A stretch of 64,000 nt of DNA from an uncultured Gammaproteobacteria bacterium (GTDB lineage: Bacteria; Patescibacteriota; Microgenomatia; Woykebacterales; RBG-16-39-9b), in contig CAYHXX010000004.1 in assembly GCA_964360785.1 (NCBI GenBank), forward strand, positions 5,568 through 69,567. The letters run 5' to 3'. Shown piece by piece: positions 482 through 57,769 of this stretch. Both the position numbers and the translations under genes were made by a program. Each line of letters begins with the position of its first letter. The first letter of the stretch is position 1. The notes under the pieces are model-generated. The model was not told where the DNA came from. It searched no databases and saw nothing but the letters and a program-made list of their open reading frames with translations.

Positions 482-510
482 CTTGACAACTTAATTCTAA
501 CCTGTTAAAA
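482..510 (+). promoter_or_regulatory. sigma70-like promoter TTGACA-17-TAAAAT driving the GC-rich unit 525-1170
   Basis: ttgaca at 482-487, 17-nt spacer, taaaat. Confidence 0.45.
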
Positions 511-1138
511 TTCTGCCGCTTCACTCAACAAAGTGTAGCTAGGTGTTCCAAAATTCCTAAACCTACTGTCCCTCAGGTTGCGGATGATGGAGTGCTGAAA
601 CAGCTTTGGTGATTGGCCGTTTATTTGATTTGGCCAAAATGCCAGAAAAGGTCAGACCCCGCTCTCCAACGTGAGGAGAGGGTAGACCACAGGAGGGACA
701 TCATGGTTACGGTACTGCTGTACCTTGCCATTGTCACCGGAGACCTGGGTTACGTGGAGGATGCTGTGCGACACGCTGTGTCGTGCGACGCTTGCCTTCC
801 GGAGCTCATGGTTTTCATCTTCGGCTTCTAAAGCCGGAGTGTGACACCGAGCCGCGGTAAAACAAGTTCTTCCTGCAAAACTCGTCTTGACGAGTAGCTA
901 TAGGAAGTGTCTTGGATCGGCTTGGGAACAGAAGGTGTAGGAAGTCGAGTCCGAAAGGGCGCTAGGCTTCTCAAACCAATCACCCGGAGGAACGCCAACC
1001 TCCGAAATGTCCAGATGTCCGCAAGGCAACCTGGGCAAAAAACTAAACGTGCGGTTTGGGCTCTGCTTGACGATGCGTATGCAAAGTCAGCCCACCCAAC
1101 CAAAGAAGGCCAAATCAATTGGCCTGCTTTGGAGGAGT

Positions 1139-1170
1139 AACGACCTTGAAAGAGGTCGTTTTTCTTTTTC
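1139..1170 (+). terminator. intrinsic terminator (aacgacc-loop-ggtcg + T-run), member of a repeated terminator module
   Basis: gtaacgaccttgaaagaggtcgtttttctttttc; near-identical to 10761-10792 and 43605-43634. Confidence 0.6.
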
Positions 1171-1213
1171 TAACTCTTGACGGATATCTACGATTCCCTA
1201 TAATTTTTGAGAG

Positions 1214-2299
1214 ATGAATAAAGATCTGCCTTTTTACGTTGCTTTGTCACAGGCGCCTGGTATTGGTCAAAAACGATTTAAAGTTTTAACTGAAAATTTT
1301 AAGTCAGCTCGCGAAGTTTGGAATTCTCCTGACAAATTATTAAGACAAATTCTTGACCCAGCAGTTTTCGAGAAGTTCAGCAAATTTCGTCAAAGTGTTG
1401 ATCCGGAAAAACTTCTCTCCGAGATTTTAAAAAAAGATATTAAAATTGTTGCCTTTTTTGAAAAAGATTATCCGGAGAAATTAAAAGAGATTTTTGACCC
1501 ACCTCCTGTTCTTTATATTAAAGGTGAATTAAAACCAGAGGATAATCTGGCATTGGCGGTGGTTGGTACGCGAAGAATTACTAACTATGGTCGGGAAGTG
1601 ACAGAAAGTTTAGTTCGCCAGCTTGCTAGTTCTGGTTTGACAATTGTTTCTGGTTTGGCTCGCGGGGTTGATTCGCTGGCACATAAAACTGCCGTTGAGA
1701 ACAATTGTCGAACAATTGCAGTTTTAGGTTGTGGTGTTGACATTGTGTATCCAGCGCAGAATGTTCTGCTCGCAAAAGAAATTATTAAAAACGGTGCGCT
1801 GGTTAGCGAATATCCTCCGGGAACAGAGCCTATCCCAGGACATTTTCCCGCCCGCAATCGAATAATTTCTGGTTTGGCACTTGGAACTTTGGTTACTGAA
1901 GCTGATGAAAAATCCGGCTCTTTGATAACTGCTAGTTTGGCATTGGAGCAAAATCGTGAAGTTTTTGCTGTTCCCGGACCAATCTATTCACGACTCTCTA
2001 AAGGACCAGCGGGGTTAATTAAACAGGGCGCAAAGTTAGTCACTTCAGCTGAGGACATATTGGAGGAGCTGAATGTCAGTGATCAGAAAGCAGGTAGCAG
2101 AAAACAGGTAAAACCGACAGGGGAAAACAAAGACGAGAAGTTAATAATAAACCTCCTGGAAAATGAAAGTAAACATATCGACCAACTTTCGCGCGAAAGC
2201 AGTATTGCAACTGAAAAACTCAACGGCCTTTTGGTAACAATGGAACTTTCTGGAAAAGTAACAAACCTCGGCGGCGGCAATTATTCCCTTACTCATTAG
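1214..2299 (+). CDS. dprA: DNA processing protein DprA/Smf
   Basis: Rossmann-like Smf core: LAVVGTRRITNYG, GLARGVDSLAH, AVLGCGVDIVYP, FPARNRIISGLALG, EQNREVFAVPG. Confidence 0.9.
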   Translation: MNKDLPFYVALSQAPGIGQKRFKVLTENFKSAREVWNSPDKLLRQILDPAVFEKFSKFRQSVDPEKLLSEILKKDIKIVAFFEKDYPEKLKEIFDPPPVLYIKGELKPEDNLALAVVGTRRITNYGREVTESLVRQLASSGLTIVSGLARGVDSLAHKTAVENNCRTIAVLGCGVDIVYPAQNVLLAKEIIKNGALVSEYPPGTEPIPGHFPARNRIISGLALGTLVTEADEKSGSLITASLALEQNREVFAVPGPIYSRLSKGPAGLIKQGAKLVTSAEDILEELNVSDQKAGSRKQVKPTGENKDEKLIINLLENESKHIDQLSRESSIATEKLNGLLVTMELSGKVTNLGGGNYSLTH

Positions 2300-2338
2300 A
2301 AAAACCTCGATCTTTTTGGTATACTTCTGCACTGTTAA

Positions 2339-2680
2339 GTGAAGGAGGGAGCCATGTGTTACCAGATCCGTTACGGACAGAGATCCAGAGGTATCTTGAC
2401 GACGAGTGGTTTCGACATATACTCAGCCGACGGGTACCGTCTGTTTGAGATTTTCTGGACACGTCCGGACTTTTCCCGATATCTTGTTATTCGACTAGTG
2501 AGTAGATGGGCACGACAGCATCTGATGACACCCAGACCACTTGAGAGTGACAAAGGACTTTGCTTGGAGATGTACCCGGGCACTATTGATATTGATCAGG
2601 TGCTTAGGGACATAGCCAAACTACTCGATACGGTCTCGGAGCTCATGCGGGTTACCAAGGGAAGGATAGTGTTGTCGTGA
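2339..2680 (+). CDS. hypothetical protein, GC-rich cassette gene 1
   Basis: strong SD gaaggaggga before ATG; GC-rich; ATGA overlap with the next ORF. Confidence 0.35.
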   Translation: MKEGAMCYQIRYGQRSRGILTTSGFDIYSADGYRLFEIFWTRPDFSRYLVIRLVSRWARQHLMTPRPLESDKGLCLEMYPGTIDIDQVLRDIAKLLDTVSELMRVTKGRIVLS

Positions 2681-2898
2681 TCTCCGCAAGTGCCCGCGAG
2701 AGACTCAAGAAGGAAGTAGCAGATATACTCAGAAAGTATTCGCACGCAGACATCCATCTACTTATCGAGTCTGTAGATGAGGCGTTGGCAGAGGAGTGTG
2801 GTCCTAAGTTGGATCAGGAAATATTTGCAATACTGGAAGAGCTCGTACTTGAAGAGCGGATCGAGCTTGCCAAAAGTAAAATAATATGGAGAGAGTAG
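2677..2898 (+). CDS. hypothetical acidic helical protein, GC-rich cassette gene 2
   Basis: overlapping start/stop with the upstream ORF; followed by terminator hairpin at about 2903-2942. Confidence 0.35.
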   Translation: MISASARERLKKEVADILRKYSHADIHLLIESVDEALAEECGPKLDQEIFAILEELVLEERIELAKSKIIWRE

Positions 2899-2997
2899 CA
2901 GCGAAGCACCAATCGAGATTCGAAAGGTGCTTTCTCTTTTTTGGAGTAATCGCAACTTTTTACAAGCTCTAAAAAAGATATGGTATATTAAGAAAGT

Positions 2998-4971: not shown

Positions 4972-5092
4972 ATTCCTAGATAAGTAGTTAATTGTATTTG
5001 ACAATTGTCTGCAATTGCGAAATGCGTCCTTGTTTCCAAAATAAGTTTAAGAAGCGCAACAATTTTAAGAAGTATGAATAAGGTACTAGTGT

Positions 5093-5131
5093 CCCATAGC
5101 ATTTGACTTTTGAACCTAAATATGCTATTAT
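5093..5131 (+). promoter_or_regulatory. promoter module cccatag-N-TTGACT-17-TATTAT, near-identical copy at 43213-43251
   Basis: cccatagcatttgacttttgaacctaaatatgctattat matches cccatagtacttgacttttgaagctaaatatactataat at about 35/39. Confidence 0.55.
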
Positions 5132-5198
5132 ATACACATAAGCTAAAAACTTATCTCGGCAGAACAAGTGTTCTCTCGAGTAGCACACTGGAGGAGAA

Positions 5199-5501
5199 AT
5201 GTCGGGCACGATTTGGGGGCTCTACGGTCTCGGATTCTTCACCGGAATCTTCGTGGTGGTCTTCAACAAGGACCAGCACGGGTGGCTCTGGAAGTTCAGC
5301 TGCATCTTTCTGGTCGGGTGGATCCCAGAGCGGATCTACACCTGGGGGCGGGCATTGTTCGGGCGGAAGCATACCATGTCGATCATGGGCTTCCTAACCC
5401 TTACCTTCCTGCTCATCTTCTTCTTCCCGGTCAGCATCCTGGTCTACTGGATGGCTAACCGGGGGAGGAGAACGGCAACGACGGGACCAGGCACGCCGTA
5501 G
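5199..5501 (+). CDS. small membrane protein (about 3 TM), GC-rich island
   Basis: SD ggaggag 2 nt before ATG; hydrophobic segments; high GC3. Confidence 0.45.
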   Translation: MSGTIWGLYGLGFFTGIFVVVFNKDQHGWLWKFSCIFLVGWIPERIYTWGRALFGRKHTMSIMGFLTLTFLLIFFFPVSILVYWMANRGRRTATTGPGTP

Positions 5502-5698
5502 GCACAACTCCAGGTGCGGGGCGGTCGGAAGTAGTTTCATGCGCAAGCACGAAACCTACCCGACCACCCTAATCCTAACTTTTAGTTTGCGAATTAGTTT
5601 CAATCCGCCAGCCGGCGGAGAAGCTAGCTCGGAAGCTAAAACTTCTTTCCGATAGAACAAGTTCATCGGAATATCACGGGGGATAGAAAGGAAAGACA

Positions 5699-5881
5699 AT
5701 GAGGTATTTGTTTTGGGCCGTGGGTTACGGACTGATCATTGGGGTCGTAATGACCGTCATGTTCGTCCATGAGCACATGGGCTCTACTACCGAAGGTCTG
5801 GAATGGTTCGTCATGATGACAGTGAACGGATCGTTCTTCTTCGGCGTACCCTTTGCCCTGCTGACGGTTCGGGAGGGGTAG
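5699..5881 (+). CDS. small membrane protein (2 TM), GC-rich island
   Basis: SD aaggaaag before ATG; two hydrophobic helices. Confidence 0.35.
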   Translation: MRYLFWAVGYGLIIGVVMTVMFVHEHMGSTTEGLEWFVMMTVNGSFFFGVPFALLTVREG

Positions 5882-6070
5882 CTGAATCATAGTTTCGGGC
5901 ACAAGAGTCACCTCTGCAACGGAATAATTGGTGGGTGCCTATTCCAAAGCGAGTAATCGCTGAGGAAGAAAGCACCCGCCCAACAACCAACTCTTCGACA
6001 GATAGGCACAATGGTGCTATACTTTATGGCTATCTGCGGGGGAGTTGAATGGAGTCAAGGAGAGAATCGC

Positions 6071-6562
6071 ATGGATTGCACATTTACACGGGTCATGTTT
6101 GGTCTTCTCGTCGTCATTCTGGTCGGGAACGCGATCACCCTGAAGAACGTTAGCCGCTCGGTGGCGCCGCGCACAGACGAGGAGAAGCGGGAAGCTATCG
6201 AGAGGACCGTGAGTAACCCGGCCGTGAATGGTGTCTATGATCCTGACGTCGTCGTGTACGCCACGACGCAGCTTCAAGGGATCTACGGGGACATGGTCAA
6301 CTATCCGGATCGACCGGTTCCGGTCGATGAAGTTCTACTCTACCTGACCTACCTCGCTGAGGGGTCGATGAGTAGACCAGACGCAATCGACTTCTGTAGC
6401 CGTGTACGTCCGCTCTGGAGTGCGTCGCACAGAATTGGCGATTTGCTTTTTGGAAAAGAGGCAACTCAGAATCAGCAAGACCTGTTCAGTAGAATTGACA
6501 ACGCCGTCGGTCAGAAAGACAAAGATGGTGCTTGTCAGTCTACACAGGAGGTGAGCACGTGA
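6071..6562 (+). CDS. hypothetical TM-anchored protein, GC-rich island (ORF track 6011..6562; ATG at 6071 preferred)
   Basis: SD aaggagag 6 nt before atggattgc; N-terminal TM then soluble domain; terminator hairpin at 6593-6637. Confidence 0.4.
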   Translation: MDCTFTRVMFGLLVVILVGNAITLKNVSRSVAPRTDEEKREAIERTVSNPAVNGVYDPDVVVYATTQLQGIYGDMVNYPDRPVPVDEVLLYLTYLAEGSMSRPDAIDFCSRVRPLWSASHRIGDLLFGKEATQNQQDLFSRIDNAVGQKDKDGACQSTQEVST

Positions 6563-6660
6563 ACAACGTTCCCACCGCAACAGGCACTTCGTGGATGAAT
6601 CCCCCCGGATCCACGAAGTGCCGTAAGTTTTTTCCAAATATTGAAATTAAAATCGAATAG

Positions 6661-10239: not shown

Positions 10240-10281
10240 TTATAGGGTTGACAAATCCTTTTTTTGTGTTAGAATCCAAGC

Positions 10282-10551
10282 GTGGACGCTTGGATGCGCA
10301 CTTGTGTGTCGGAGCGGCCTGTCTTCTCTGCTACCCTGGTAACGGATCAGGTGTTGGTGGACTTTTCCGAGGAGGAGACTCTGCAGCTTGCTGTAGAGTA
10401 TCTGAATTGGGGTGAGTTCACGATCCTGATTTCAGTATCAGTGGTAGGAGAAGGCGGGTTGGTTGAAGTACCAGAACCACTTAGGGAGGAGCTGACGGAT
10501 TACTTCCGGACGCACCACCTTCGTGGGGTTGGGACCAAGACCGCGCTCTAG
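10282..10551 (+). CDS. hypothetical ORF in a GC-rich unit (weak; no SD)
   Basis: only long ORF between promoter ttgaca-17-tagaat (10246-10275) and terminator 10761-10792; transcript begins with a hairpin ccaagcgtggacgcttgg. Confidence 0.2.
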   Translation: MDAWMRTCVSERPVFSATLVTDQVLVDFSEEETLQLAVEYLNWGEFTILISVSVVGEGGLVEVPEPLREELTDYFRTHHLRGVGTKTAL

Positions 10552-10760
10552 GCCACCGGGGGTTTGATGGAATCCTTGTCGACAAATCTATCAACGCAGC
10601 CAGCGTGAGATAGTATCCATCCGGTTCTACTCAACCGTTTGTGGTATGCAAAGACCACGGAGAATGAGGGGAGTGTAGGGAGCGAAAGGAGAGTGCTATG
10701 TATAAAGCATACACCTGTCCCTACCTTAAGATTTTCAAACTTTGGAAAGCTTAAGAAGAG

Positions 10761-10792
10761 GAACGACCTAGAAATGGGTCGTTTTTCTTTTT
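10761..10792 (+). terminator. intrinsic terminator, repeated module copy 2
   Basis: aacgacctagaaatgggtcgtttttctttt. Confidence 0.6.
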
Positions 10793-10819
10793 ATCAAACG
10801 TATAGTATATTAGTCACCT

Positions 10820-17221: not shown

Positions 17222-17350
17222 ACCAAGTTAGTTGAAAACCCATAGTTACTCTGGTAAAATGCCTCAATCGGAAGGAGACCGCACAGGTTTCGCTCATGAA
17301 CACCTGTAGAAAGTGCTGACGGATGAAAGCCCAAACGGAGGCAACCCGCT

Positions 17351-17614
17351 ATGCCTTTCGATTGGAAGCCGCCCAACGAAGCACCGGTTCCAGATAACGC
17401 AGACCTGATCGTAGAGTCGATTAACAGATTCTGGGAAGAAAATCACGAGGCAACTATCAAGGTCATGTATAGCTACAAGTTGGGTACGATGGCTTTCTCG
17501 TTGAATATCAAAGGTGGAGATTCGCTTTGTTATATGGGTATTATTGATACCGTCGAAGCGCGCAAGATAGTAGAGATTCTTGATGAAATACGTATGTACG
17601 CGCAAGCAATCTAA
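17351..17614 (+). CDS. hypothetical protein, GC-rich single-gene cassette
   Basis: promoter ttgaaa-17-taaaat at 17232-17260 (contains cccatagt), SD acggagg, terminator 17624-17657. Confidence 0.35.
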   Translation: MPFDWKPPNEAPVPDNADLIVESINRFWEENHEATIKVMYSYKLGTMAFSLNIKGGDSLCYMGIIDTVEARKIVEILDEIRMYAQAI

Positions 17615-17799
17615 TAATTGCAACAGACTCCTCACGCCCTGGGGAGTCTCTCTTTTTCAAAAAGAAAAGGCCCGACTTATTCAGAAGGACCTTCGTCATC
17701 TCTCTCAGATTTTGGTTTTTTGAGACAAGCTCGGATACCGGCGCTGCATAAAGAGAGGCCAATACCAATCAAGAGCAGTTTGATTAACATTTCAGTCTC

Positions 17800-18033
17800 C
17801 TAGTAGTCTGTTGGGTAGCCAGCGTAGGGATCTTCTCTTTTCACCGGATCGAAATAGAAGAGGAAGTAGACCAGAAGGGCTGCAACAATCCCAACTACTG
17901 TCAATCCCACAGCTATTGGTAAGGCTGCTATCCAGAAACTACCTGTCAGGTACCAGAGAATTGCTGTGACTATGGCGATGAATATCAGATCCACAGCACC
18001 GAATATGATCTCGAAAGCAAACCGTTTCAGCAT
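17800..18033 (-). CDS. small membrane protein (77 aa; start MLKRFAFE)
   Basis: SD aaggagg directly upstream on minus strand; two TM helices. Confidence 0.45.
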   Translation of the reverse strand: MLKRFAFEIIFGAVDLIFIAIVTAILWYLTGSFWIAALPIAVGLTVVGIVAALLVYFLFYFDPVKREDPYAGYPTDY

Positions 18034-20035: not shown

Positions 20036-20115
20036 TTGACTAATCCCATTCAGTCGTAAAGTAGTTCCCAAATTTTTGTAAACAAGTATAATAACTGCGA
20101 AGAAGGAGGAGACTC

Positions 20116-20559
20116 ATGTGCTGCACAGACAGCTGGTTGTCCTGCACACGGTGTTTTGAGAAATATCCAGCGGAAGCTATCTACTGCATGCGCTGCGGCA
20201 AGAAAACAGGCAAGACTCAGCAAGATCGGATGTGGCCGGGTGAAATTTTAAGAATTGCTCATGATGCTGACATGACACTACTAGAGGAAGCCATACGGGC
20301 CGCGTTTGGCCAACTCCCAAACGGGCGGCAAAGTATCACCAACGATGAGATTCAGACTATACTTCCGAGATTGACAGAGAAGCAAGGGCAGGTATTGATC
20401 CGTGCCTTCAACCTGGACAAGAAAGGGGTGCGCCCTAGAAAAGAGATTTCTGCAGAGATGGGATCATCTGTAAGAGCTGTTATGGAGCGTGTTGACTGGG
20501 CATTAGCCTGTGTTAACGAGTCGCTGGAAATTGAATATTACCGAAGGATCCAGGCGTGA
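20116..20559 (+). CDS. Zn-ribbon + sigma-70 region-4-like HTH protein, GC-rich cassette
   Basis: CxxC..CxxC at the N-terminus; LTEKQGQVLIRAFNLD..RPRKEISAEMGSSVRAVMERVDWAL resembles sigma region 4; SD gaaggagga. Confidence 0.4.
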   Translation: MCCTDSWLSCTRCFEKYPAEAIYCMRCGKKTGKTQQDRMWPGEILRIAHDADMTLLEEAIRAAFGQLPNGRQSITNDEIQTILPRLTEKQGQVLIRAFNLDKKGVRPRKEISAEMGSSVRAVMERVDWALACVNESLEIEYYRRIQA

Positions 20560-20634
20560 ACCCACTCACGCCTTTTTATTTTTCCCAAAAACTTGCAGGA
20601 TTAGCTTATAATTTCAACAGGAAAGGAGATCTCA

Positions 20635-21003
20635 ATGACACTCAAGACTTATAGTCCCGGTGTTTGGGCTATGGCGTTTCATTACCCAGACTACTCTCAA
20701 GCCTTTGAGGTTTGGAGGCAGATCAATCGCTATCTACAAGAACCTGTATTTGACGGTGGTGTTGCAGCATACAGACTGCGAAAAGTGGAGGAAGATGGGG
20801 AAACAAAGGGGTACATATATATCGTCGCTGCAGGGCAAAGTTTATCACCAGAAATGCAGGCGAGGTTGGAAACGATATGTAAAGATGGCCTGTCCACAGA
20901 AGTCGAAGACAGTATTGTTCTGAAAGTAGCTGAAGATCACGAAGGACGTTATGTGCCTGGAGTGAAAACGCACTTCCACAACCGAGCCTTCCGACACATA
21001 TAG
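20635..21003 (+). CDS. hypothetical protein, second gene of the GC-rich cassette
   Basis: SD aaaggagatc before ATG; terminator 21004-21034. Confidence 0.35.
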   Translation: MTLKTYSPGVWAMAFHYPDYSQAFEVWRQINRYLQEPVFDGGVAAYRLRKVEEDGETKGYIYIVAAGQSLSPEMQARLETICKDGLSTEVEDSIVLKVAEDHEGRYVPGVKTHFHNRAFRHI

Positions 21004-21048
21004 CGTACCTTCTGGTGCGCTTTTTCTTTTTCCTGATATACTATTCCC

Positions 21049-23558: not shown

Positions 23559-23819
23559 TAATAGGTTTGAACTTTTAGTCCGAAGGACGCAAAGCGCGTA
23601 GCGATTTATATCCAACTTCTCGCCCAAGCCATCGAACAACTCAAAAATTAAATCTAAGTGAGCAATTGCGGGGCTTTTTTATTGACAAGGCCGGGCCTTA
23701 GCCACACGGAGTTTTTTTCTTTCCAAAATTTGTAAGAATATGTTATACTATAGGGCAGAATACAGCCTGCGGAGAGTATCCGTGTAAGTGCTGATAAGTT
23801 CGAAACGGAGAGAGTTAAA

Positions 23820-34189: not shown

Positions 34190-34264
34190 AATGGGTTCCA
34201 AGTTTAACATCGTTCTCGTTATTAGCCTCACCCTTATGGAGGGCGGCTCTGACGTTGACCGGTA
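34190..34264 (+). CDS. candidate 24-aa hydrophobic peptide MGSKFNIVLVISLTLMEGGSDVDR, near-leaderless
   Basis: promoter ttgaca(34153)-17/18-tagtat ends 8 nt before the ATG; terminator hairpin gacctcctaccacaggaggtttttt follows at 34294-34320. Confidence 0.2.
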
Positions 34265-34351
34265 AGTTACCTGGAACAACAACGAACGAGCTGACCTCCT
34301 ACCACAGGAGGTTTTTTCGTTTGTTGGAGCTCAAAGCCATCCGGAAGTGAG

Positions 34352-34855: not shown

Positions 34856-34916
34856 AAAGAAGAAAAAGAGATGGTCCTTCACGCCTCCGAACCGCATTGG
34901 ATCGGAGGCTTCTTTT

Positions 34917-36404: not shown

Positions 36405-36406
36405 AT

Positions 36407-41408: not shown

Positions 41409-41493
41409 ATATCCCAACAATTTGAAGACCTAGAGTATAATGGCTGCAATAGCAGGAAGAATTCATCTGCTGAAAAGTTAGTGGGAGGGTGCG

Positions 41494-41736
41494 ATGCGAG
41501 TGGTTACCGCCGACTCTCTGAACACCCTTCGGGTTGGGCAGAGAGCCAGATACACTGGGATGGTGAGGCGAAGAGAGCTTACGGCGCTCGTTCGTGTCAA
41601 CGGGGTCTACAGCCGTCACGCGGGTTTGCGCATCGAAGTGATCAAGAAGCAGAAGCCGGCGCGCAGCTTCAAGATTGGAGATACCTTCACCATCGCTTTC
41701 GGCAAGCACGAGACGCTAGCGGTGGAGGACGACTAA
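41494..41736 (+). CDS. small hypothetical protein 1 of GC-rich four-ORF operon
   Basis: SD gggaggg 4 nt before ATG; GC3-rich. Confidence 0.35.
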   Translation: MRVVTADSLNTLRVGQRARYTGMVRRRELTALVRVNGVYSRHAGLRIEVIKKQKPARSFKIGDTFTIAFGKHETLAVEDD

Positions 41737-41774
41737 TCGGCAAGGAAGTAGCTGGCGAAAAGCCAGGAGGTGTT

Positions 41775-41963
41775 ATGCCCAGAATGATCATTGAAATCGA
41801 GTCGGAAGACGGGATCGCGATCGACGAGTTGGTTGCGGCGGCTGCCCTTTCTAAGTTGATCCTGGGTCTTGTTGATCCCGGGTCAATCCCCGCCGAACCC
41901 AAGCGTATTCCTGTTCCGTTTGGTCGGGGCCAGCTCTTTCTGAGCTGGACCTTCGAGGCTTAA
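41775..41963 (+). CDS. small hypothetical protein 2 (62 aa)
   Basis: preceded by hairpin-SD module tagctggcgaaaagccaggagg. Confidence 0.35.
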   Translation: MPRMIIEIESEDGIAIDELVAAAALSKLILGLVDPGSIPAEPKRIPVPFGRGQLFLSWTFEA

Positions 41964-42004
41964 CCACCAATACGCAGTTGGCGAAAAGCCAGGAGGAGAG
42001 AGTC

Positions 42005-42304
42005 GTGTACGTTAAAGTTGTCAAAGTCCCAGCGGGGGAGGCGCCTTTGCATGTTCGGCAAGCTTGGGTGGGGACTGTTTTCCAAGCTGTAGGACCCAGG
42101 GAGTATTGGGAAGAGGGGATTGTCACCGGAAAAGACAATCCTGCTCGCCTTGGCTACGCCGTACCTCAAGAGCTTGCGGTGGAAGCACTCGAGCGAAGGA
42201 ACCCAGCAGCGGCAGACTGGTTCCGAGAACATTTACGCTACCATTCCAACAACCTAATCTTCGGAGCGGACGAGGTCGTGGAAATCCACAACGAAGGAAT
42301 GTAG
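42005..42304 (+). CDS. small hypothetical protein 3 (GTG start)
   Basis: preceded by agttggcgaaaagccaggagg, 9 nt to GTG. Confidence 0.3.
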   Translation: MYVKVVKVPAGEAPLHVRQAWVGTVFQAVGPREYWEEGIVTGKDNPARLGYAVPQELAVEALERRNPAAADWFREHLRYHSNNLIFGADEVVEIHNEGM

Positions 42305-42327
42305 CTGGCGAAGGCCAAGGAGGAGAC

Positions 42328-42684
42328 ATGCACAGTTACGGTATCGATCACGGTCCGGATGAGGTTGCCCAGCCGCAACCCATGTCGAACGGCTTCTACG
42401 TTGAGGTGTACAAGCTCAATGCTGTTCGTTTCAGCATAGCTCATCCCGCTCTCAACAATCGCCAAGCTCGGGTCGGTATCTTCGTAGTGATCGACGAAGT
42501 CACCCAGAGCTGGGGTGAAGACGGAAGAGGAGATCGAGGAATCGCCTTTACTGGCTACCTCAAGCCGGAAAAGGGTGATCAGTCTCTGCACTGGGTGAGG
42601 GGCGTTTACAGCTTCAGCCGTCACGGTGGTAGTATCGAGACGGAATCTGAGATCGAGCTCAGGATCGCTCCGGTCGCCGCCTGA
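42328..42684 (+). CDS. small hypothetical protein 4 (118 aa)
   Basis: preceded by tagctggcgaaggccaaggagg; terminator 42737-42777 follows. Confidence 0.35.
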   Translation: MHSYGIDHGPDEVAQPQPMSNGFYVEVYKLNAVRFSIAHPALNNRQARVGIFVVIDEVTQSWGEDGRGDRGIAFTGYLKPEKGDQSLHWVRGVYSFSRHGGSIETESEIELRIAPVAA

Positions 42685-42849
42685 TCAAGAACATACCTAA
42701 CGCGAGAGTGGAGAGAAGATCAATTCCTGTCCACAAGGGTCGTCGCATCATGCACGACCCTTTCGCGTTTTAATTTTCAAAAAACTTGTCCCGATTGAAT
42801 CGGGATTTGCTTATCTTAGGTCCTGAAATTAAAATAAAAGAAAAAGCTC

Positions 42850-43197: not shown

Positions 43198-43212
43198 TTC
43201 CCCAACAAAAAA

Positions 43213-43251
43213 CCCATAGTACTTGACTTTTGAAGCTAAATATACTATAAT
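43213..43251 (+). promoter_or_regulatory. promoter module, second copy of the 5093-5131 element (TTGACT-17-TATAAT)
   Basis: cccatagtacttgacttttgaagctaaatatactataat. Confidence 0.55.
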
Positions 43252-43286
43252 AATATCAATCAGGTGTAGCGTGAAAGGATAGCACC

Positions 43287-43487
43287 ATGATTGCGTTGTT
43301 CGTCATAATGGCGATTCCGTTCTGGTTTCTGGTGGTGATCCGAGTAGTTCTACTTACGATCCTCGCCATCTTCCTCATCGCCATCTTCATTACATTGTCC
43401 CAAATCGGGAGAAGTGGTGAGAATGGGATTACCGCAATGCAGAAGAGACTGAAGCGGGAGGCGAAAGAGAAGGAGGCGAAGAAGTAG
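43287..43487 (+). CDS. small membrane protein with K/E-rich tail, GC-rich cassette
   Basis: SD aaagga before ATG; two hydrophobic helices; terminator module 43605-43634. Confidence 0.4.
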   Translation: MIALFVIMAIPFWFLVVIRVVLLTILAIFLIAIFITLSQIGRSGENGITAMQKRLKREAKEKEAKK

Positions 43488-43604
43488 GAGAATAGGTTAC
43501 ACGGATGGGAGCGGTCGGCGAAAGCCAGACTGAACCGTAGCGAACCACAAGTTTGCTCTCTTCCCGGCCCTTAAGAAAATCAGATTGGTTTGTTTAAGAA
43601 GAGA

Positions 43605-43634
43605 AACGACTCAGCAATGGGTCGTTTTTCTTTG
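43605..43634 (+). terminator. intrinsic terminator, repeated module copy 3
   Basis: aacgactcagcaatgggtcgtttttctttg. Confidence 0.6.
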
Positions 43635-43677
43635 GGAAAATTTGCTTATCTACGGAGGGAAAAGTTAAAATCAAAAT

Positions 43678-46613: not shown

Positions 46614-46828
46614 TAACTCAATTATAGCAGAAATTCTTTAGCCCAAGTTTCCGCTAGTTCGATTTCACTTTTTCCCAACAAAAAACCCCGATTTAGTCGG
46701 GGTTACTTGTCCTAAGAAAACCTCCGCTAGATCAGCGGATTGGAGATTTGCTTGGGGATCGAGGCGTAACTGGCGGTTACGTCTCGGTGGATCTCTCATA
46801 ACTTTTTCCTTTCCTGGTTGCGGACTGG

Positions 46829-47149
46829 TTACTGCTGATTCACTAAGGTGCGCAGCTTGTCAGCGTACAGGAAGCTGTAGATCCCCACCATCGCTGTTGC
46901 GATGAGTGGCGGACAGAACAATTCGAAGTACACGTTCTTATCCCCGAGGACCAAGGGCCAAGGGGCGGCTAACATTGACCCAGCCAGGATGAGTAACCAG
47001 ACCAGTGGATGGAGCTTTGCTGCCCACTCTCTGGCCGGTGAGAACTTGAAGTCCTTGTCGAGAAAGGCGATGCACATGTAGATCACGAAAAACACCGAGA
47101 TCTCGAAACCCAAAAGGGCCAGCACCGTGTTGTGTACCAAATCCTCCAT
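46829..47149 (-). CDS. hypothetical membrane protein
   Basis: three hydrophobic segments; terminator hairpin ccccgatttagtcgggg downstream on the minus strand. Confidence 0.4.
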   Translation of the reverse strand: MEDLVHNTVLALLGFEISVFFVIYMCIAFLDKDFKFSPAREWAAKLHPLVWLLILAGSMLAAPWPLVLGDKNVYFELFCPPLIATAMVGIYSFLYADKLRTLVNQQ

Positions 47150-47172
47150 AATTCCTCCTCGGCTTTCGCCGT

Positions 47173-47448
47173 TTAGAGCCCTTCCATTCGATATTGCGGG
47201 CTCGGTCCCAATTCCTTCTTTTCTACAGCGTCAGGCGGTGGATCCACCAACTTCCAGCGTGTATCACCGCCAGCGTAATCGCTGTCCTGGTCAACGTAAC
47301 CTCGTGGGTCAAGTGCATTGTTCAGCGATTGGACCACACCGTTCACACTGAGGCATGTTCGGGTTGCAATCTCTCGCGCAGTGCCCGCTCCTCCCAGCTC
47401 ATGCAGAGCTTGGAGTATGGTCCTTTGGATGGGCTTTAGGCTTGGCAT
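47173..47448 (-). CDS. winged-helix DNA-binding protein, GC-rich
   Basis: RTILQALHELGGAGTAREIATRTCLSVNGVVQSLNNAL HTH. Confidence 0.45.
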   Translation of the reverse strand: MPSLKPIQRTILQALHELGGAGTAREIATRTCLSVNGVVQSLNNALDPRGYVDQDSDYAGGDTRWKLVDPPPDAVEKKELGPSPQYRMEGL

Positions 47449-47598
47449 GGCCGCTCCTTACCGAATGCCTGGTTTAGCTTATCAACATTATACTTCGGTT
47501 ATACAAATTTTGAGAAATAAGTCGGGGAAAAAGAGAAGAGCCCCCGCCGTAATGAGGGAGGGGCTCTTGGTTGTGCCGTCACGTCGAGGAGCATTGGG

Positions 47599-48108
47599 TT
47601 AGCTTGCGGCCGCGTCGTTGCTCGTGGCGTCCGCCTGTTCCTCGCTGATCGGCAGGATGTCAGGCGAGTTCTTGTCCTCCTGAATCTCCTTCATCCTGTC
47701 CTTGCAGATTCCTGCCACCGCGCTCCAGATCCACCTGGAGATCACCTCGTCGAGGTGCGATAAGAGGCCGGAAACCGCGGCAGCGAGCTCATCCTGCACG
47801 AAGCCGCCGGCGAAGCGGGCGTCTCCGCCTTCGAGGATCCACGGCGCCTCATTGACGATATAGCTGGACGATTGGCCCGTGCGATGACATAGTTCGGCCT
47901 TCGCGCGGGCGATCTCGTCGTACTTGTGCGCCCAGCTCTCCTTGGGGTCCACGGCGATAGTGGTCTCGTAGAGATGAAACGACGGTTCGATCACCACGAT
48001 GTGGAGGTTCCTCCTGCCGCCGCCGAGCTCCGCGAGGAGCGCGTCGATCGAAGGGCGAACCAAGGCGACGGCCTGGTCGAAGACTTCCTGGGTAACCAGA
48101 AACGACAT
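47599..48108 (-). CDS. hypothetical protein, GC-rich (possibly GlcG/DUF336-like)
   Basis: high GC3; terminator hairpin gagcccctccctcattacggcgggggctc on minus at about 47527-47570. Confidence 0.35.
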   Translation of the reverse strand: MSFLVTQEVFDQAVALVRPSIDALLAELGGGRRNLHIVVIEPSFHLYETTIAVDPKESWAHKYDEIARAKAELCHRTGQSSSYIVNEAPWILEGGDARFAGGFVQDELAAAVSGLLSHLDEVISRWIWSAVAGICKDRMKEIQEDKNSPDILPISEEQADATSNDAAAS

Positions 48109-48306
48109 GGGTTTACTCTCCCTTTTCTAACTCAACCTGTCCAAACTTATGGACAAGGATTTACGAGTAAAATCATGCTTGATTATAGCAGAAAAAGAGA
48201 AGTATGTAAATACTATAAGATAGTTACCGGCCTCATTACTCTTTCTTCCTATTTTTATCAGATGATAGGAGAACTATTGGTTCCGCACTAAGAAGTGTTA
48301 ATTGAA

Positions 48307-55677: not shown

Positions 55678-55732
55678 TAAGAAAATTATTGCAAATTACC
55701 TTTTATAAAGCAAACCTGCTAAAATCCTTAAC

Positions 55733-56788
55733 ATGTTGAAAGTCGGAATTGTCGGGCTCCCAAACGTGGGTAAGTCTACCTTATTTAATGCTTTACTCAA
55801 AAAACAAGTCGCGCAAGCAGCAAACTATCCATTTACTACAATCGATCCAAATATTGGCGTAGTCGAAGTTCCCGACGAGCGTCTGCAAAAGTTGGCCGAG
55901 GTGGTCAAAACTGAAAAAATTATTCCGGCAGCTGTCGAGTTTGTCGATATTGCTGGTTTGGTTAAGGGTGCAGCTGCTGGTGAAGGTCTTGGAAACAAAT
56001 TCCTTTCCCATATTCGTGAAGTCGATGCTATTGCCCATGTGGTTAGAGAATTCGAGGATTCTGATGTACTGCGAAGTGATAGCTCGACTGATGCAAAGAG
56101 TGATGTTGAAACGATTAACACGGAGCTGATATTGGCTGATCTGGAAACGATCGAGAAGTTAGTTTTTGGTGCTAAGAAGGATGTCAAAGCCAAGGAAAAA
56201 AGTGCTGAGAAAAAATTGGAAGCCTACCTTAAACTTAAAGGAGGGTTGGAAAAGGGAACATTGGCCAAAGATATTGAGATTGATCCCGAACTAGCGGTTG
56301 GTTTACCGCTGATAACTATCAAGCCCACGATTTACGTTATTAACGTTGCTGAGTCCGAGTTGAAACAGGCAATCAATTTGGAATTAGAACCAAAGGTTGT
56401 TATTTGTGCCAAAGTCGAAGCTGAGCTAGTTGAATTAAATCCTGATGAGCAAAAAGATTACTTGAAAGAGTTAGGATTACATGAATCAGGATTGGAAAGG
56501 TTGATTAGCGAAAGTTACAAGCTACTCGGCTTGGTCACTTACTTCACTGCCGGTGAGAAGGAAGTTCGTGCCTGGACTATACATATTGATACAAAAGCAC
56601 CTCAAGCAGCGGGTGTAATCCACACAGATTTTGAAAAAGGCTTTATTAAAGCGGAGGTGATTAACTGGGAAAAGCTTGTTACTGTTGGTGGTTGGAATCA
56701 AGCAAGGGAAAAAGGTTTAGTTCGCCTTGAAGGTAAAGACTACCTCTTCCAAGACGGGGACACGACCATTTTCAAATTCAACGTTTAA
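55733..56788 (+). CDS. ychF: ribosome-binding ATPase YchF
   Basis: GIVGLPNVGKSTLFNAL, TGS domain C-terminus. Confidence 0.9.
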   Translation: MLKVGIVGLPNVGKSTLFNALLKKQVAQAANYPFTTIDPNIGVVEVPDERLQKLAEVVKTEKIIPAAVEFVDIAGLVKGAAAGEGLGNKFLSHIREVDAIAHVVREFEDSDVLRSDSSTDAKSDVETINTELILADLETIEKLVFGAKKDVKAKEKSAEKKLEAYLKLKGGLEKGTLAKDIEIDPELAVGLPLITIKPTIYVINVAESELKQAINLELEPKVVICAKVEAELVELNPDEQKDYLKELGLHESGLERLISESYKLLGLVTYFTAGEKEVRAWTIHIDTKAPQAAGVIHTDFEKGFIKAEVINWEKLVTVGGWNQAREKGLVRLEGKDYLFQDGDTTIFKFNV

Positions 56789-56875
56789 AAAAAGAGCCGA
56801 CTGCTTCGAATGTGGAAGCAGCCGGTTTTGCGTTGGCATCGTGCGAACTCGTGTCAGCAGCCGTGACGTAGGGTA

Positions 56876-57280
56876 TTACGAGTGGATGGGACGCATTTGC
56901 CGATGGTAAGCCAGACGTCGTTTCACTTCATTAAGTTTCTCTTCCTCCCGTTGACGGCGTTTCGCATCACGCACGAGGCGCGCGATTCGAGAGCGCAGGA
57001 CTGATGGACGCTTCTTCGCTGGCGTTCCCCGCATCTTCAAGCGCAGCCGGCGCAGTTGGTTGACGTCGATGCCACCGTTGCTCGTGATGCAGAGGTTAAC
57101 TTGCCGTCGGGTGTTGCGGTGGCTCTTGTGTGAACCGTCCGACGGTTGGAGGATTCGGTGCAGGTACCCTGTCACCGTTTCACGTCCTTCCTCGAGAAGC
57201 AGGTGACCCGCTCTTTCGAGAGCGATGGCTCGGGGAACACAATTTCCCGCATCCTCCCACGCAGGGATATTTAGTTCCAT
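56876..57280 (-). CDS. hypothetical basic protein, GC-rich
   Basis: R/K-rich C-terminus; high GC3. Confidence 0.3.
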   Translation of the reverse strand: MELNIPAWEDAGNCVPRAIALERAGHLLLEEGRETVTGYLHRILQPSDGSHKSHRNTRRQVNLCITSNGGIDVNQLRRLRLKMRGTPAKKRPSVLRSRIARLVRDAKRRQREEEKLNEVKRRLAYHRQMRPIHS

Positions 57281-57445
57281 GGTGGACTCTCCCTTCGGTA
57301 ATGACCTGATTGCTCGCTTACTTCTGGCCTATAATATAAAACTAATTGAGCTAAATTGCAAATCCAGTTTGTAGGTGGAGAAAAATTGGGCCGAGTGCAG
57401 GGTGTGCAATCGGCCCGTGACGGACTATTCGGTTGGTTTGGCGTA

Positions 57446-57769
57446 TCAGGCTGCGGTGTTTCGCCTCTGGCGTTCGGAGCGTTCTGAGTTGTCGATCATT
57501 GCCCAGAGACCGTTGCTGAAAGCGTCGGCTTGTTCGCTCCTTGGTGCCTTGGCGACCTTCGCCAGAAACTTGCGCAAGTTGTGTGGTCTGATGCAGAGCC
57601 CTTCGGCGGTGCCGTCGAAAAGTTGCTTGTAGGTCAGCCCAAGCACCGGCCGTCGCCGAGGGTTGGCGTAATCGTACAGGTGTCGAAGCATGTGATGCTT
57701 GACACGAGTGTCGAGCTGCGCTGGCGCTTTGGACGCTGCGGCCGCAATCTTACTCCGATCTATCTTCAT
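57446..57769 (-). CDS. hypothetical protein, GC-rich
   Basis: SD aaggag before ATG on minus strand. Confidence 0.35.
   Translation of the reverse strand: MKIDRSKIAAAASKAPAQLDTRVKHHMLRHLYDYANPRRRPVLGLTYKQLFDGTAEGLCIRPHNLRKFLAKVAKAPRSEQADAFSNGLWAMIDNSERSERQRRNTAA

Follow-up and report, generated by a model that had tools for sequence, protein, structure and literature searches.

GC-rich segments between conserved genes of a 64-kb bacterial DNA stretch as probable accessory transcription units

Composition and boundaries of the segments

The window, i.e. the whole analysed stretch of 64 kb, would represent a core-genome section of an ultra-small, Saccharimonadales-type CPR bacterium of the Hainich groundwater, with cassettes at operon junctions; its CysS matched the nearest GTDB representative, a Saccharimonadales MAG, at 77 %. 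Exact matches of its proteins assigned the window to ENA ERZ1292618 (Hain_H52_01um_R2_87). A sequence-only reading had reported about 15 sharply GC-rich segments of 55-60 % GC in a background of 35-40 % GC, and this observation was partly confirmed. The GC content was 0.437 across the whole window, 0.519 inside the 14 listed segments and 0.420 outside, thus the background had been underestimated. Seven segments were clearly GC-rich, with 0.50-0.58 overall and peaks of 0.55-0.64 in 300-nt windows: 470-1170 (0.50, peak 0.55), 5090-6640 (0.52), 23700-24750 (0.53), 34150-34860 (0.55), 41440-42780 (0.55), 47170-48110 (0.58, the true island extending over 46650-48200) and 56870-57770 (0.56). Three to four were moderate, among them 2330-2945 (0.48), 10240-10795 (0.49) and 31000-31620 (0.51). 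Four were indistinct in bulk GC (17230-17660, 0.46; 20060-21035, 0.47; 27790-28200, 0.47; 43200-43640, 0.46), nonetheless the GC3 of their ORFs was elevated to 0.51-0.70. The proposed range of 55-60 % GC applied therefore to some segments and failed for the others, four of which were near the background. The high GC3 was borne out, and codon usage differed from that of the core genes: median GC3 was 0.62 in island ORFs (0.43-0.85) and 0.39 in core genes (0.29-0.55; Mann-Whitney p = 2e-11), and codon preferences were reversed between islands and core (ATC 78 % vs 31 %, AAG 76 % vs 30 %, TTC 77 % vs 28 %). Amino acid usage in island ORFs was shifted from Lys to Arg and from Ile to Val. The ORFs accounted for most of the GC excess, their GC peaking at the third codon position, and the island UTRs had a GC content of 0.50 vs 0.36 in core spacers. 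The GC excess is real and affects codons, amino acid usage and UTRs alike.

Consensus scans of the sequence placed the best promoter-like and terminator-like matches of the window at the segment ends. The top promoter-like sites, scoring 10-11 of 12 and often with an extended -10 TG, were located at island starts, on the forward strand at 483, 5103, 5995, 10248, 17232, 20065, 34154 and 43223 and on the minus strand at 48210 and 47516. The best hairpins followed by a T-run lay at island ends (forward strand: 1139, 17625, 20552, 21002, 24711 and 42788; minus strand: 46704 and 56825), and an AGGAGG or GGAGG Shine-Dalgarno (SD) motif preceded nearly every island ORF. The scans thus upheld the claim that each segment has its own promoter, strong SD motif and intrinsic terminator, and support the prediction of autonomous promoter-ORF-terminator units. 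The intergenic position was confirmed for the slots between dprA and topA, ybeY and pth, the thyA fusion and tmk, and ychF and rpsF.

Content of the cassettes

All cassettes are on the forward strand except islands F and G; the promoters and terminators given below are predictions from consensus matches. Island A (469..1213) consists of a predicted promoter (483-511), a leader (518-702), a 42-codon ORF (703-831), a structured RNA of ~300 nt (832-1138), a terminator module shared with other cassettes (1119-1169) and a predicted restart promoter for dprA (1177-1204), which occurs only where island A occurs. Its ORF had a four-fold divergence of 0.35 vs 0.56-0.70 in core genes, and the differences were mostly synonymous third-position changes. 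The filler between dprA and topA (2300..2997) is weak in GC (0.46-0.50), with a promoter-like site (2297-2325) and two ORFs (2354-2680, 108 aa; 2677-2898, 73 aa). Island B (4972..6660) contains three units behind a shared promoter module (5093-5132): B1 (5199-5501, 100 aa, two TM, GC3 0.85), a conserved structured RNA (5502-5699), B2 (5700-5881, ~60 aa, two TM) and B3 (6071-6562, 163 aa, N-terminal TM) with a second predicted promoter (5995-6023). The cassette between thyA and tmk (10240..10819) has a predicted promoter (10248-10275), a possibly leaderless ORF (10282-10551, 89 aa), a structured 3' region and the shared terminator module (10742-10792). Three weak members are found at 17222..17800 (promoter 17232-17260; ORF 17351-17614, 87 aa, GC3 0.51; terminator 17625-17649), between ybeY and pth at 20036..21048 (predicted promoter 20065-20092; ORFs 20116-20559, 147 aa, and 20635-21003, 122 aa; predicted terminators 20552-20573 and 21002-21021) and at 27687..28275 (promoter 27736-27763; ORF 27800-28198, 132 aa, GC3 0.55).

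Island C (23559..24775; promoter-like site 23720-23749, terminator 24711-24736) encodes a protein of 288 aa with a GC3 of 0.66 (23820-24686). It had been read as a NYN-LOTUS protein; the NYN domain was found (Pfam, E = 1.4e-23), a LOTUS domain was undetected, and PADLOC gave only a generic NYN match. A candidate pair of small RNAs (30869..31785), GC-rich and strongly folded, comprises the units 30990-31200 and 31270-31640, which lack a credible ORF and are each closed by a hairpin plus T-run. Island E (41409..42849, terminator 42788-42806) is an orphan operon of four genes, E1 (41494-41736), E2 (41775-41963), E3 (42005-42304) and E4 (42328-42684), with a hairpin-plus-AGGAGG motif repeated upstream of E2, E3 and E4. 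The minimal cassette (43198..43677) has the shared promoter module (43213-43252), a hydrophobic ORF of 66 aa (43287-43487, GC3 0.70), a structured 3' UTR and the shared terminator module (43585-43635). On the minus strand, island F (46614..48306, promoter 48210-48182, terminator 46704-46684) is the most GC-rich (peak 0.64) and encodes F1 (47599-48108, 169 aa, GC3 0.83), F2 (47173-47448, 91 aa, HTH-like by eye, predicted promoter 47516-47487) and F3 (46829-47149, 106 aa, three TM). Island G (56789..57884), also on the minus strand in the slot between ychF and rpsF, has promoter-like sites at 57842-57815 and 57362-57333, the ORFs G1 (57446-57769, 107 aa) and G2 (56876-57280, 134 aa, Arg-rich) and a terminator (56825-56797).

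Nearly all cargo lacked Pfam families, and the cargo proteins were unrelated to one another. The idea of a cassette family holds for the promoter and terminator modules that some members share, but not for the proteins. F1 had one homologue among 5.8e9 protein clusters, located in L173 in an unrelated context with a GC3 of 0.49; E4 had none among 1.84e9 representative proteins. The AF2 model of F1 (pLDDT 73) matched the GlcG/HbpS/EfgA fold, which suggests a very divergent GlcG/HbpS-like protein. This fold match and the synonymous-dominated divergence of ORF A indicate that the cassettes encode real proteins. The proposed small membrane proteins were confirmed by the hydropathy of B1, B2, B3 and F3 and by a direct reading of the ORF at 43287; the proposed HTH proteins are weakly supported, as the Sigma70_r4_2 match of the 147-aa ORF (20116-20559; E = 0.006) falls short of the cutoff of Pfam.

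Island D (34131..34916) differs from this variable set. A predicted promoter (34154-34182) precedes a putative leader peptide of 24 codons rich in Ile, Val and Leu (34191-34265), an attenuator hairpin with T-run (34293-34313) and an ORF resembling the LeuA allosteric domain (34394-34855, 153 aa, GC3 0.71), whose sister orthologues are annotated as PF08502. Leaders of 72-81 % identity are present in L172, L005 and L170, and all three have a peptide rich in branched-chain amino acids and the same terminator. Judged from these alignments, island D is a leader-peptide attenuator unit of old age that was inherited vertically in at least four genomes, and not mobile. The set is therefore heterogeneous, as it includes one or more old regulatory units next to the variable orphan cassettes.

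Slot turnover and structured RNA

The comparison with sister genomes revealed the same slots as empty, homologously filled or differently filled. The slot of island A was empty in L085 and L088 and had a homologous filler in L086. Between dprA and topA, L086 had no insert, while other ORFs were present in L088, L089, L181 and L182; the 108-aa ORF was 62 % identical in L085, TopA 92 %. The slot between thyA and tmk was empty in L089 and held three differing cargos in the window, L086 and L088; the fillers of L086 and L088 were GC-rich, and L088 had the same 3' module as the window. In L171, ychF adjoins rpsF directly. Cargo families also changed place, as F1 in L173 and a homologue of E3 (44 %) in L172 occupied other slots. 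The promoter module common to 5093 and 43213 was also found in L085, L088, L089 and L182, the terminator module common to 1139, 10762 and 43605 in L086 and L088. Fillers had a GC3 of 0.58-0.81 vs ~0.30-0.52 in core genes of L085, L086, L088 and L181, with a weaker GC contrast in more distant relatives. B1 and B3 were only 30-50 % identical to their orthologues and saturated at four-fold sites (0.67-0.69), yet their GC3 was 0.62-0.85 in both genomes. The units are lineage-wide, and each slot has its own history of gain, loss and replacement in the sisters.

The sequence-only reading had assigned to the cassettes proteins or nothing convincing and overlooked the large share that conserved structured RNA has in the signal. 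The median folding z-score was -1.21 in island windows vs -0.16 in the core (p = 2.5e-7), with extreme values in islands A and B, the 10.2 kb cassette and at 31.0-31.7 kb. The island A transcript folds with z = -7.25, and among 104 predicted pairs of its 3' RNA, compared between two sequences only, the window and L086, none was broken, four had compensatory and 12 one-sided changes. In island B (z = -9.4 at 5501-5700), the non-coding stretches were 87-100 % identical to L085, L086, L088 and L181; GGAAGCTAAAACTTC was unchanged in the window, L085, L086 and L088, and the stretch around it matched L181 at 92-96 %. In the cassette between thyA and tmk, the stretches 10301-10500 and 10601-10800 had z-scores of -8.4 and -5.2, and the units of the small RNA pair had -4.5 to -5.1. 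GNRA-capped hairpins occurred 1.5 times per kb in islands vs 0.24 in the core, and the non-coding parts of cassettes were better conserved than the ORFs. No Rfam family matched the cassette RNAs; for the small RNA pair, nothing was found at E <= 1 apart from chance miRNA matches. Inside the ORFs of islands C, E, F and G, the z-scores were near zero and no better than those of shuffles, thus structure beyond composition is concentrated in UTRs and spacers, and selection on folding is no obvious explanation for the high GC3 of these ORFs.

Origin of the cassettes

A window that was misassembled or engineered, with DNA of a GC-rich organism interleaved into a low-GC genome, would account for sharp compositional boundaries at gene junctions in a contig of low coverage (~5.8x by its name). 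This alternative is refuted for the tested junctions and extremely improbable overall: the replicate assemblies R1 (window 1018-5965, from the end of island A through the start of island B) and R3 (22359-27196, both junctions of island C) matched at 99.92-99.96 %, sisters from unrelated samples (SRR31809889, SRR31239915, SRR11524814 and GCA_964491295) have homologous or analogous GC-rich fillers at the same slots, and the boundaries coincide with functional signals rather than arbitrary break points. Structured non-coding RNA is the usual cause of GC-rich intergenic DNA in lower-GC genomes, as are cis-regulatory RNAs. The better folding and conservation of non-coding parts, the compensatory changes in island A, the enriched GNRA hairpins and the ORF-less units at 31.0-31.7 kb would fit a set of such RNAs with incidental ORFs; however, most of the GC excess resides in ORFs with canonical SD motifs and peaks at third positions, ORF A differs chiefly at third positions, the F1 fold is confident, the NYN domain significant, the ORF interiors of C, E, F and G fold like shuffles and Rfam gave no match, which makes RNA alone quite unlikely as an explanation.

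A horizontal origin was weighed in two forms. Recent, unameliorated import by natural transformation from a GC-rich donor, e.g., an actinomycetotal host of this epibiont, agrees with GC3, codon and amino acid shifts fitting a source of 55-60 % GC, the replacement of Lys by Arg and of Ile by Val being expected from long residence in a GC-rich replicon. Patchy presence among sisters, the fading GC contrast in distant relatives, the two GC3 values of the F1 family (0.83 here, 0.49 in L173) resembling stages of amelioration, and the DprA and type IV pilins encoded in the window point in the same direction. Against it, well-sampled GC-rich phyla should have appeared in the searches with F1 and E4, nearly all cargo is without Pfam families, promoters, SD motifs and terminators follow the local AT-rich pattern and are common to several cassettes, orthologues of B1 and B3 are saturated but GC-rich in both genomes, and island D was inherited vertically while GC-rich in four genomes. 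Patescibacteria acquire genes mostly from other Patescibacteria, the majority of them without assigned function (PMC12455944). It is therefore unlikely that the cassettes were recently imported from a GC-rich donor among the sampled lineages, although four-fold saturation leaves divergence times loose, so a slow amelioration from a very GC-rich ancestor with GC3 > 0.9 is conceivable. The claim of horizontal acquisition stands as to slot turnover and is doubtful as to a recent GC-rich donor. That the cassettes are carried by a dedicated mobile-element system, be it integron-like, MITE/IS-like or one drawing on an unsampled GC-rich extrachromosomal pool, with the shared modules as element ends, or that they are remnants of integrated phage or plasmid DNA, appears improbable. 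End modules recur across slots and genomes, cargo families change slots, the membrane, HTH-like and NYN nuclease cargo is typical for accessory genes of mobile elements, and the cassettes exceed every examined host chromosome in GC. Yet, as the sequence-only reading had stated, integrases, transposases and att-like boundaries are absent from the 64-kb window, as are relaxases and tRNAs; filled and empty sites compared reveal neither target-site duplications nor terminal inverted repeats, attC-like repeats were not found, four tested cargos had no relatives on viral contigs, PHROG gave no significant hits and PADLOC none except NYN. Module matches on viral contigs were to unrelated low-GC phages at about chance level, and the modules, being ordinary sequences of promoters and terminators, could spread by local duplication.

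The GC-rich segments are probably accessory, self-contained transcription units, about ten in number, i.e. 'moron-like' chromosomal cassettes at the junctions of conserved operons. Each unit would be read from its own sigma-70-type promoter and ended by an intrinsic terminator, and would carry one to four ORFs with strong SD motifs. These ORFs, set in long untranslated RNA that folds strongly, would encode orphan proteins restricted to the lineage: small membrane, small basic or HTH-like, NYN nuclease and very divergent GlcG/HbpS-like proteins. If a former operon is interrupted by a unit, transcription of the downstream core gene would restart from a new promoter. We infer that turnover is driven by homologous recombination following natural transformation, which would make use of the conserved flanks in the core and may also use the end modules that cassettes share; a dedicated recombinase does not appear to be involved. 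With low certainty, the GC excess may be maintained in this flexible gene pool, most likely by selection on transcript folding or stability and possibly with GC-biased repair at recombination hot spots as contributor, and is less likely to be the unameliorated mark of a recent foreign donor.

Genomic setting and composition of the GC-rich segments

The sequence originated from the 0.1 µm fraction of groundwater from Hainich well H52; exact matches of two of its proteins assign it to a contig of 79.7 kb (ENA ERZ1292618, Hain_H52_01um_R2_87). The window is a dense run of housekeeping genes, with mreBCD/PBP2 located just upstream of its listed genes. The core gene order includes dprA, topA, dcd, a dcd/dut-like gene, an MtrA-ThyA-pterin-binding fusion, tmk, rpsB, tsf, frr and rseP, then a class II aaRS gene, rpsU, ybeY, pth, mfd, dnaX, ybaB, recR and cysS, and finally type IV pilin-like genes, PCMT, RidA, a copper cluster, a DEAD helicase, ychF and rpsF. 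A genome-collection scan with CysS identified as nearest species representative a Candidatus Saccharimonadales MAG with 77 % identity, thus the window belongs to a CPR/Patescibacteria chromosome. With a representative of only this identity, the synteny was too loose for spotting empty sites. For a metagenome scan YchF was too conserved a protein; among the matches listed, relatives had at most 57 % identity and presented no sister loci. Sister contigs were reached via TopA homologues with 92, 87, 87, 83, 79 and 77 % identity, all from unrelated sequencing runs, and these contigs keep the same core gene order as the window.

Several public MAG records titled 'uncultured Gammaproteobacteria' (L006, L007, L009, L010) have a CysS 53–58 % identical to that of the window and a gene order resembling the one observed here; the order in L006 closely follows that of the Patescibacteria MAG L008. 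The taxonomic labels of these four records are probably wrong. In the region 7565–10239, the thymidylate synthase is a 523-aa MtrA-ThyA-pterin-binding (DUF4346) fusion. Before it lie two neighbouring DCD-family genes, of which the second shows a weak dUTPase signature; all sisters keep this arrangement. Between dnaX and ybaB lies a gene of the 23S-rRNA-intervening-sequence protein family (PF05635; 25726–26091, minus strand) with the lowest GC3 of its block, 0.29. The stop codon of recR is directly followed by a 39-nt unit in perfect tandem repetition (28869–28957, 2.3 copies), with one TTGACT -35-like hexamer per copy. Three adjacent pilin-like ORFs (34917–38838, especially 36455–36640) carry one to three tandem 19-aa units, KGFTFSRSEKAEPLLKSSN, encoded by a 57-nt repeat (2.8 copies, 98 % identical) before the true prepilin motif KGFTLIEILV; possibly, the units are pseudo-cleavage sites of the leader peptide that arose by duplication.

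The sequence-only reading had described fourteen listed segments as sharply GC-rich cassettes on a background of about 35–40 % GC. It recognized the kind of feature, but overstated its degree and number, and placed the background too low. The GC content is 0.437 for the whole window, 0.519 for the fourteen segments pooled and 0.420 for the remainder. A clear GC enrichment, with maxima of 0.55–0.64 in 300-nt windows, was found in seven segments (approximately 500–1200, 5100–6650, 23750–24750, 34200–35000, 41350–42800, 46650–48200 and 56700–57900), three are moderate (2400–2800, 10250–10750 and 31250–31700), and four, at 17230, 20060, 27790 and 43200, are indistinct in bulk GC. The third codon positions separated the two classes more sharply than bulk GC: the median GC3 was 0.62 for 23 island ORFs versus 0.39 for 55 core genes (p = 2e-11). 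Relative to the core genes, the island ORFs have inverted synonymous preferences, and the amino-acid usage is shifted from lysine to arginine. The untranslated parts of the island transcripts have a GC content of 0.50, compared to 0.36 in ordinary core spacers.

The feature is real and no artefact. One independent replicate assembly (R1) reproduced the window between 1018 and 5965 at 99.96 % identity, another one (R3) between 22359 and 27196 at 99.92 %, and several island junctions lie within these stretches. In the five closest genomes (the window and the relatives L085, L086, L088 and L181), the ORFs in the slots, i.e., the junctions between two core genes, are small and have a GC3 of 0.58–0.81 versus about 0.30–0.52 in the core. 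The replicate assemblies and the GC-rich fillers in sister slots contradict a chimeric or engineered sequence, which had been offered as the alternative explanation. For the annotation of CPR MAGs this means that such patches are not to be equated with contamination or chimeras, and that trimming is unwarranted.

Slot turnover, predicted expression signals and cargo

The slot before dprA (slot A) is filled in the window and in L086. In L085 and L088 it is empty, and the two core genes concerned, a 171-aa gene and dprA, are adjacent with only about 30 nt between them. The dprA/topA junction is empty in L086 and the ychF/rpsF junction in L171. Between thyA and tmk, L089 has no insertion, while three unrelated GC-rich cargos occupy this site in the window, L086 and L088. 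Judged from these sequence comparisons, the slots behave as hot spots. The only detectable relative of the ORF F1 was found in a completely different neighbourhood, on contig L173, and a relative of E3 in a different slot, on contig L172, so the cargo is not tied to its slot. The absence of an integrase, a transposase or att-like boundaries, proposed from the sequence alone, was borne out: neither integrase nor transposase nor tRNA genes were found among the called genes and in the tRNA search of the window, the repeat search revealed no attC-like family of imperfect inverted repeats, only a terminator module, and the filled and empty junctions of slot A presented no target-site duplication.

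Consensus scans placed the strongest promoter-like matches of the window at island starts and the strongest hairpin-plus-T-run sites at island ends. The motifs AGGAGG or GGAGG precede nearly every island ORF by 4–9 nt. The earlier assignment of an own promoter, Shine-Dalgarno sequence (SD) and terminator to each unit thus agrees with the predicted signals. Island A starts right after the upstream stop codon and ends in a putative terminator followed by a near-consensus promoter for dprA, which is missing where slot A is empty. Three cassettes of the window, with zero expected by chance, end in a common terminator module of about 50 nt (AACGAC...GGTCGTTTTTCTTT with upstream context); the module also closes cassettes in L086 and L088, one of them with a different cargo. 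Island B and the 43.2 kb cassette both start with a 40-nt promoter module, in which 35 of the 40 positions agree between them; the module was also present at topA/dcd in L085, L088, L089 and L182 and at thyA/tmk in L088. A few exact matches to the promoter and terminator modules were observed on viral contigs, in unrelated low-GC phages or on one high-GC contig, and no homologous genes lay beside them. With a rough estimate of 0.2 chance matches for the promoter 21-mer, the viral matches were attributed to chance or generic signals. Within island E, the motif G[TC]AG[CT]TGGCGAA[AG][AG]GCCA[AG]GGAGG precedes E2, E3 and E4 (41748–41782, 41974–42008 and 42301–42335) and folds into a short hairpin; its 3' arm and the SD overlap.

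The island ORFs do not constitute one protein family, as no paralogy was detected at E < 0.1. Their orthologues are far less conserved than the core: identities were 47 % for B1 and 32–34 % for B3, where TopA was 87–92 % identical. F1 (47599–48108, minus strand) had no Pfam match at E <= 0.01, including PF03928 (GlcG/HbpS/EfgA, DUF336), and the PDB sequence search yielded nothing meaningful. The predicted structure (pLDDT 73), however, matched the small-ligand/haem-binding fold of GlcG/HbpS/EfgA (Foldseek probability 1.0, E about 1e-3, TM about 0.5 to 4clc, 3fpv and 6bws), thus F1 is a real protein. After F1 come a small HTH-like protein and a protein with three transmembrane segments; the three could be a sensor-regulator-membrane trio. 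The protein of island C contains a NYN nuclease domain (E = 1.4e-23, residues 12–164), and its residues 165–288 have no LOTUS/OST-HTH match at E <= 0.01. Small hydrophobic peptides are encoded by ORF A (42 aa), B2 (about 57–60 aa, two transmembrane segments) and the ORF at 43287 (66 aa). Four cargo proteins were without relatives on IMG/VR contigs in a search that finds close relatives only, PHROGs gave two marginal matches and none significant, and PADLOC reported a generic NYN match, but no other defence or toxin-antitoxin signature.

Folded RNA elements and the leader region of island D

The island A transcript folds with a z-score of -7.25 relative to dinucleotide shuffles. A folding scan of the whole window (200-nt windows, sense strand) revealed a median z of -1.21 in the strong islands versus -0.16 in the core (p = 2.5e-7); 37 % of the island windows were below -2, compared to 10 % in the core. 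Within core sequence, z was uncorrelated with GC. The density of GNRA-capped hairpins in the islands is six times that of the core and 3.6 times that of composition-matched shuffles. The signal is concentrated in untranslated regions and spacers; inside the ORFs of the islands C, E, F and G, folding does not exceed that of shuffles. In contrast to the fast-diverging cargo proteins, the non-coding parts are highly conserved. Over 456 nt, ORF A with its 3' region shares 87 % identity with L086, compared to 65–66 % for the genes on either side. In the 3' region, this comparison of only two sequences showed none of 104 predicted pairs broken, together with four compensatory double and twelve compatible single changes. 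The spacer after B1 is also 87 % identical to L086 and contains the motif GGAAGCTAAAACTTC, invariant in the window, L085, L086 and L088; the stretch around it matches L181 at 92–96 %. A conserved non-coding element between topA and dcd (window 5500–5700, z = -9.4 for this copy; L085 4865–5035; L086 6865–7045; L088 8457–8640; L181 13711–13847) is retained while the flanking ORFs change, with B1 absent in L085 and L088.

At 31 kb, two GC-rich folded units (30990–31200 and 31270–31640, z about -4.5 to -5.1) both begin with GGGAAGGAGGTAG.GA and finish in a hairpin plus T-run. They contain no convincing ORF and are followed by a 28-nt tandem repeat (31643–31703, 2.2 copies). The segment of 31.0–31.7 kb looks like two small RNA genes. 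Rfam provided no match at the gathering score in the whole window, and in 450–6700 and 30850–31800 there were only chance-level matches at E <= 1; with both the tRNA and the Rfam searches empty, the patches are not known RNA genes. The 3' domain of island A, the topA/dcd element with its invariant GGAAGCUAAAACUUC and the 31 kb units are candidates for new structured RNAs without an Rfam family.

Island D (34154–34855) consists of a predicted promoter, a near-leaderless Ile/Val/Leu-rich ORF of 24–25 codons, a hairpin with T-run and the gene of a 153-aa protein similar to the LeuA allosteric domain. Counterparts are present in L172 (2855–3457), L005 (3517–4144) and L170 (2491–3083). The leader peptides of 24–25 codons are rich in Ile, Val and Leu in all four genomes, and the GC hairpin (34293–34313) plus T-run between leader ORF and 153-aa gene is likewise conserved. 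The leader is 72–81 % identical in the three more distant genomes. Island D is clearly inherited vertically and is not a mobile cassette. Its architecture makes it a candidate branched-chain amino-acid leader-peptide attenuator. As in leu and ilv leaders, an ORF with Ile/Val/Leu codons directly precedes a GC hairpin and U-run, located before a gene related to leucine sensing (LeuA allosteric domain). Unlike these leaders, the ORF is almost leaderless, and the regulated gene would encode a stand-alone allosteric-domain protein. To our knowledge, the group of this organism is generally reported to be without amino-acid biosynthesis. An attenuator in such a group suggests the sensing of host-supplied amino acids.

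Origin of the GC excess and relation to known systems

Translational selection as cause of the high GC3 was ruled out by the low GC3 of the ribosomal-protein genes. An import of the cassettes from a sampled GC-rich lineage is unlikely because a search of 5.8 billion clusters turned up a single homologue of F1, and for E4 there was none in 1.84 billion representatives, all of which HMMER read. A composition maintained in place is favoured by B1 and B3: between the window and L086, four-fold sites are saturated in the core (0.56–0.70) and equally in these two ORFs, yet their GC3 is still 0.62–0.85 in both genomes. Island D, which is clearly vertical and has a raised GC content in each of the four genomes known to contain it, argues in the same direction. 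Against a maintained composition stand the amino-acid shift, which is the expectation for a long stay in a GC-rich replicon, the GC3 of the F1 family, 0.83 in the window versus 0.49 in L173, and the fading of the contrast in relatives with a TopA identity of 79 % or less. The four-fold saturation also loosens the timing argument. For these reasons we only tentatively prefer selection at the RNA level, GC-biased conversion or both to a recent import. Should the excess be maintained and not imported, the flexible genes of these organisms would be subject either to a constraint not recognised so far, through selection on RNA, or to such a mutational process, through biased conversion.

Phage morons, described by Hendrix and colleagues in lambdoid phages such as HK97 and HK022, are autonomous promoter-gene-terminator units between genes that are adjacent in relatives. 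The units of the window share three of the four defining features, i.e., a predicted own promoter and terminator, an insertion between otherwise adjacent genes and a deviant composition, and their cargo is unrelated to the functions of the neighbours. The fourth feature, phage residence, is absent: the units are located in a bacterial core chromosome between housekeeping operons, without phage gene or PHROG signal. They also differ by long conserved structured RNAs and by a shift towards higher GC that persists in orthologous copies. Genomic islets or flexible-genome hot spots are small accessory insertions that naturally competent bacteria exchange via homologous recombination. The fixed slots between conserved core genes with variable content in empty, filled and replaced states and the lack of a dedicated recombinase resemble such islets; the units, however, are very small (0.4–1.7 kb), dense (at least 10 per 64 kb) and almost entirely of orphan cargo, with promoter and terminator modules common to some of them. 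In composition they are GC-richer than the core, unlike most accessory DNA, which is AT-richer. In the 'GC-IGR' approach of the Breaker laboratory, GC-rich intergenic regions serve as candidates for structured non-coding RNA. Accordingly placed patches coincide here with folded conserved RNA (the 3' region of island A, the slot-B element, the 31 kb units and the leader of island D), but most units also encode SD-led proteins, and the GC enrichment reaches third codon positions and amino-acid usage.

Other known elements are more distant. Integron cassettes are likewise small, with one or few genes and unrelated, often orphan cargo, but none of their defining features was found: the units lack attC, IntI and an array, seem to have their own promoter each and are dispersed among core genes. 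Also none of the features defining classical genomic islands and integrative elements was present, neither an integrase or transposase nor a tRNA-adjacent att site nor flanking direct repeats. Several units encode hydrophobic peptides of 42–66 aa in highly structured mRNAs with strong terminators, similar to type I toxin-antitoxin systems of the hok/sok kind. A small hydrophobic peptide by itself does not establish membership in this group. Unlike these systems, there was no Rfam or Pfam match, and many units encode larger soluble proteins. For an antisense RNA, the consensus scan indicated no strong minus-strand promoter-like site in the islands A and B and the 43.2 kb cassette; weak promoters could escape it.

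The units are best filed as moron-like accessory cassettes, here in a CPR chromosome; the overall interpretation of the sequence-only reading was only partly right. The set is heterogeneous: island D is not mobile, the 31 kb segment is RNA-gene-like, and island E is a four-gene orphan operon. In subsurface Patescibacteria, islands of 2.7–45 kb with mostly intra-phylum donors were reported in 2025, 62 % of the acquired genes being unannotated, and nothing at the scale of these cassettes (PMC12455944). Our search of the literature on CPR and Saccharibacteria found no prior description of GC-rich cassettes, structured RNAs or small proteins like these. A wider reading, which we regard as possible but doubtful, is that a subclade of the Saccharimonadales maintains previously undescribed chromosomal mini-cassettes of promoter, structured RNA plus orphan ORFs, and terminator. 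These would shuffle among fixed slots via shared modules without a recombinase, and their GC-richness would be actively maintained by selection on RNA folding or stability or by GC-biased conversion at the hot spots.

The genomes of CPR/Patescibacteria are tiny and streamlined, and a large share of their genes has no known function. For a part of this gene fraction the window reveals the site and the organisation, as dense, apparently autonomous cassettes with fast turnover between housekeeping operons. If the mini-cassette reading is true, the cassettes would serve ultra-small genomes as a nursery of novel RNAs and of genes that evolve fast or are newly born.
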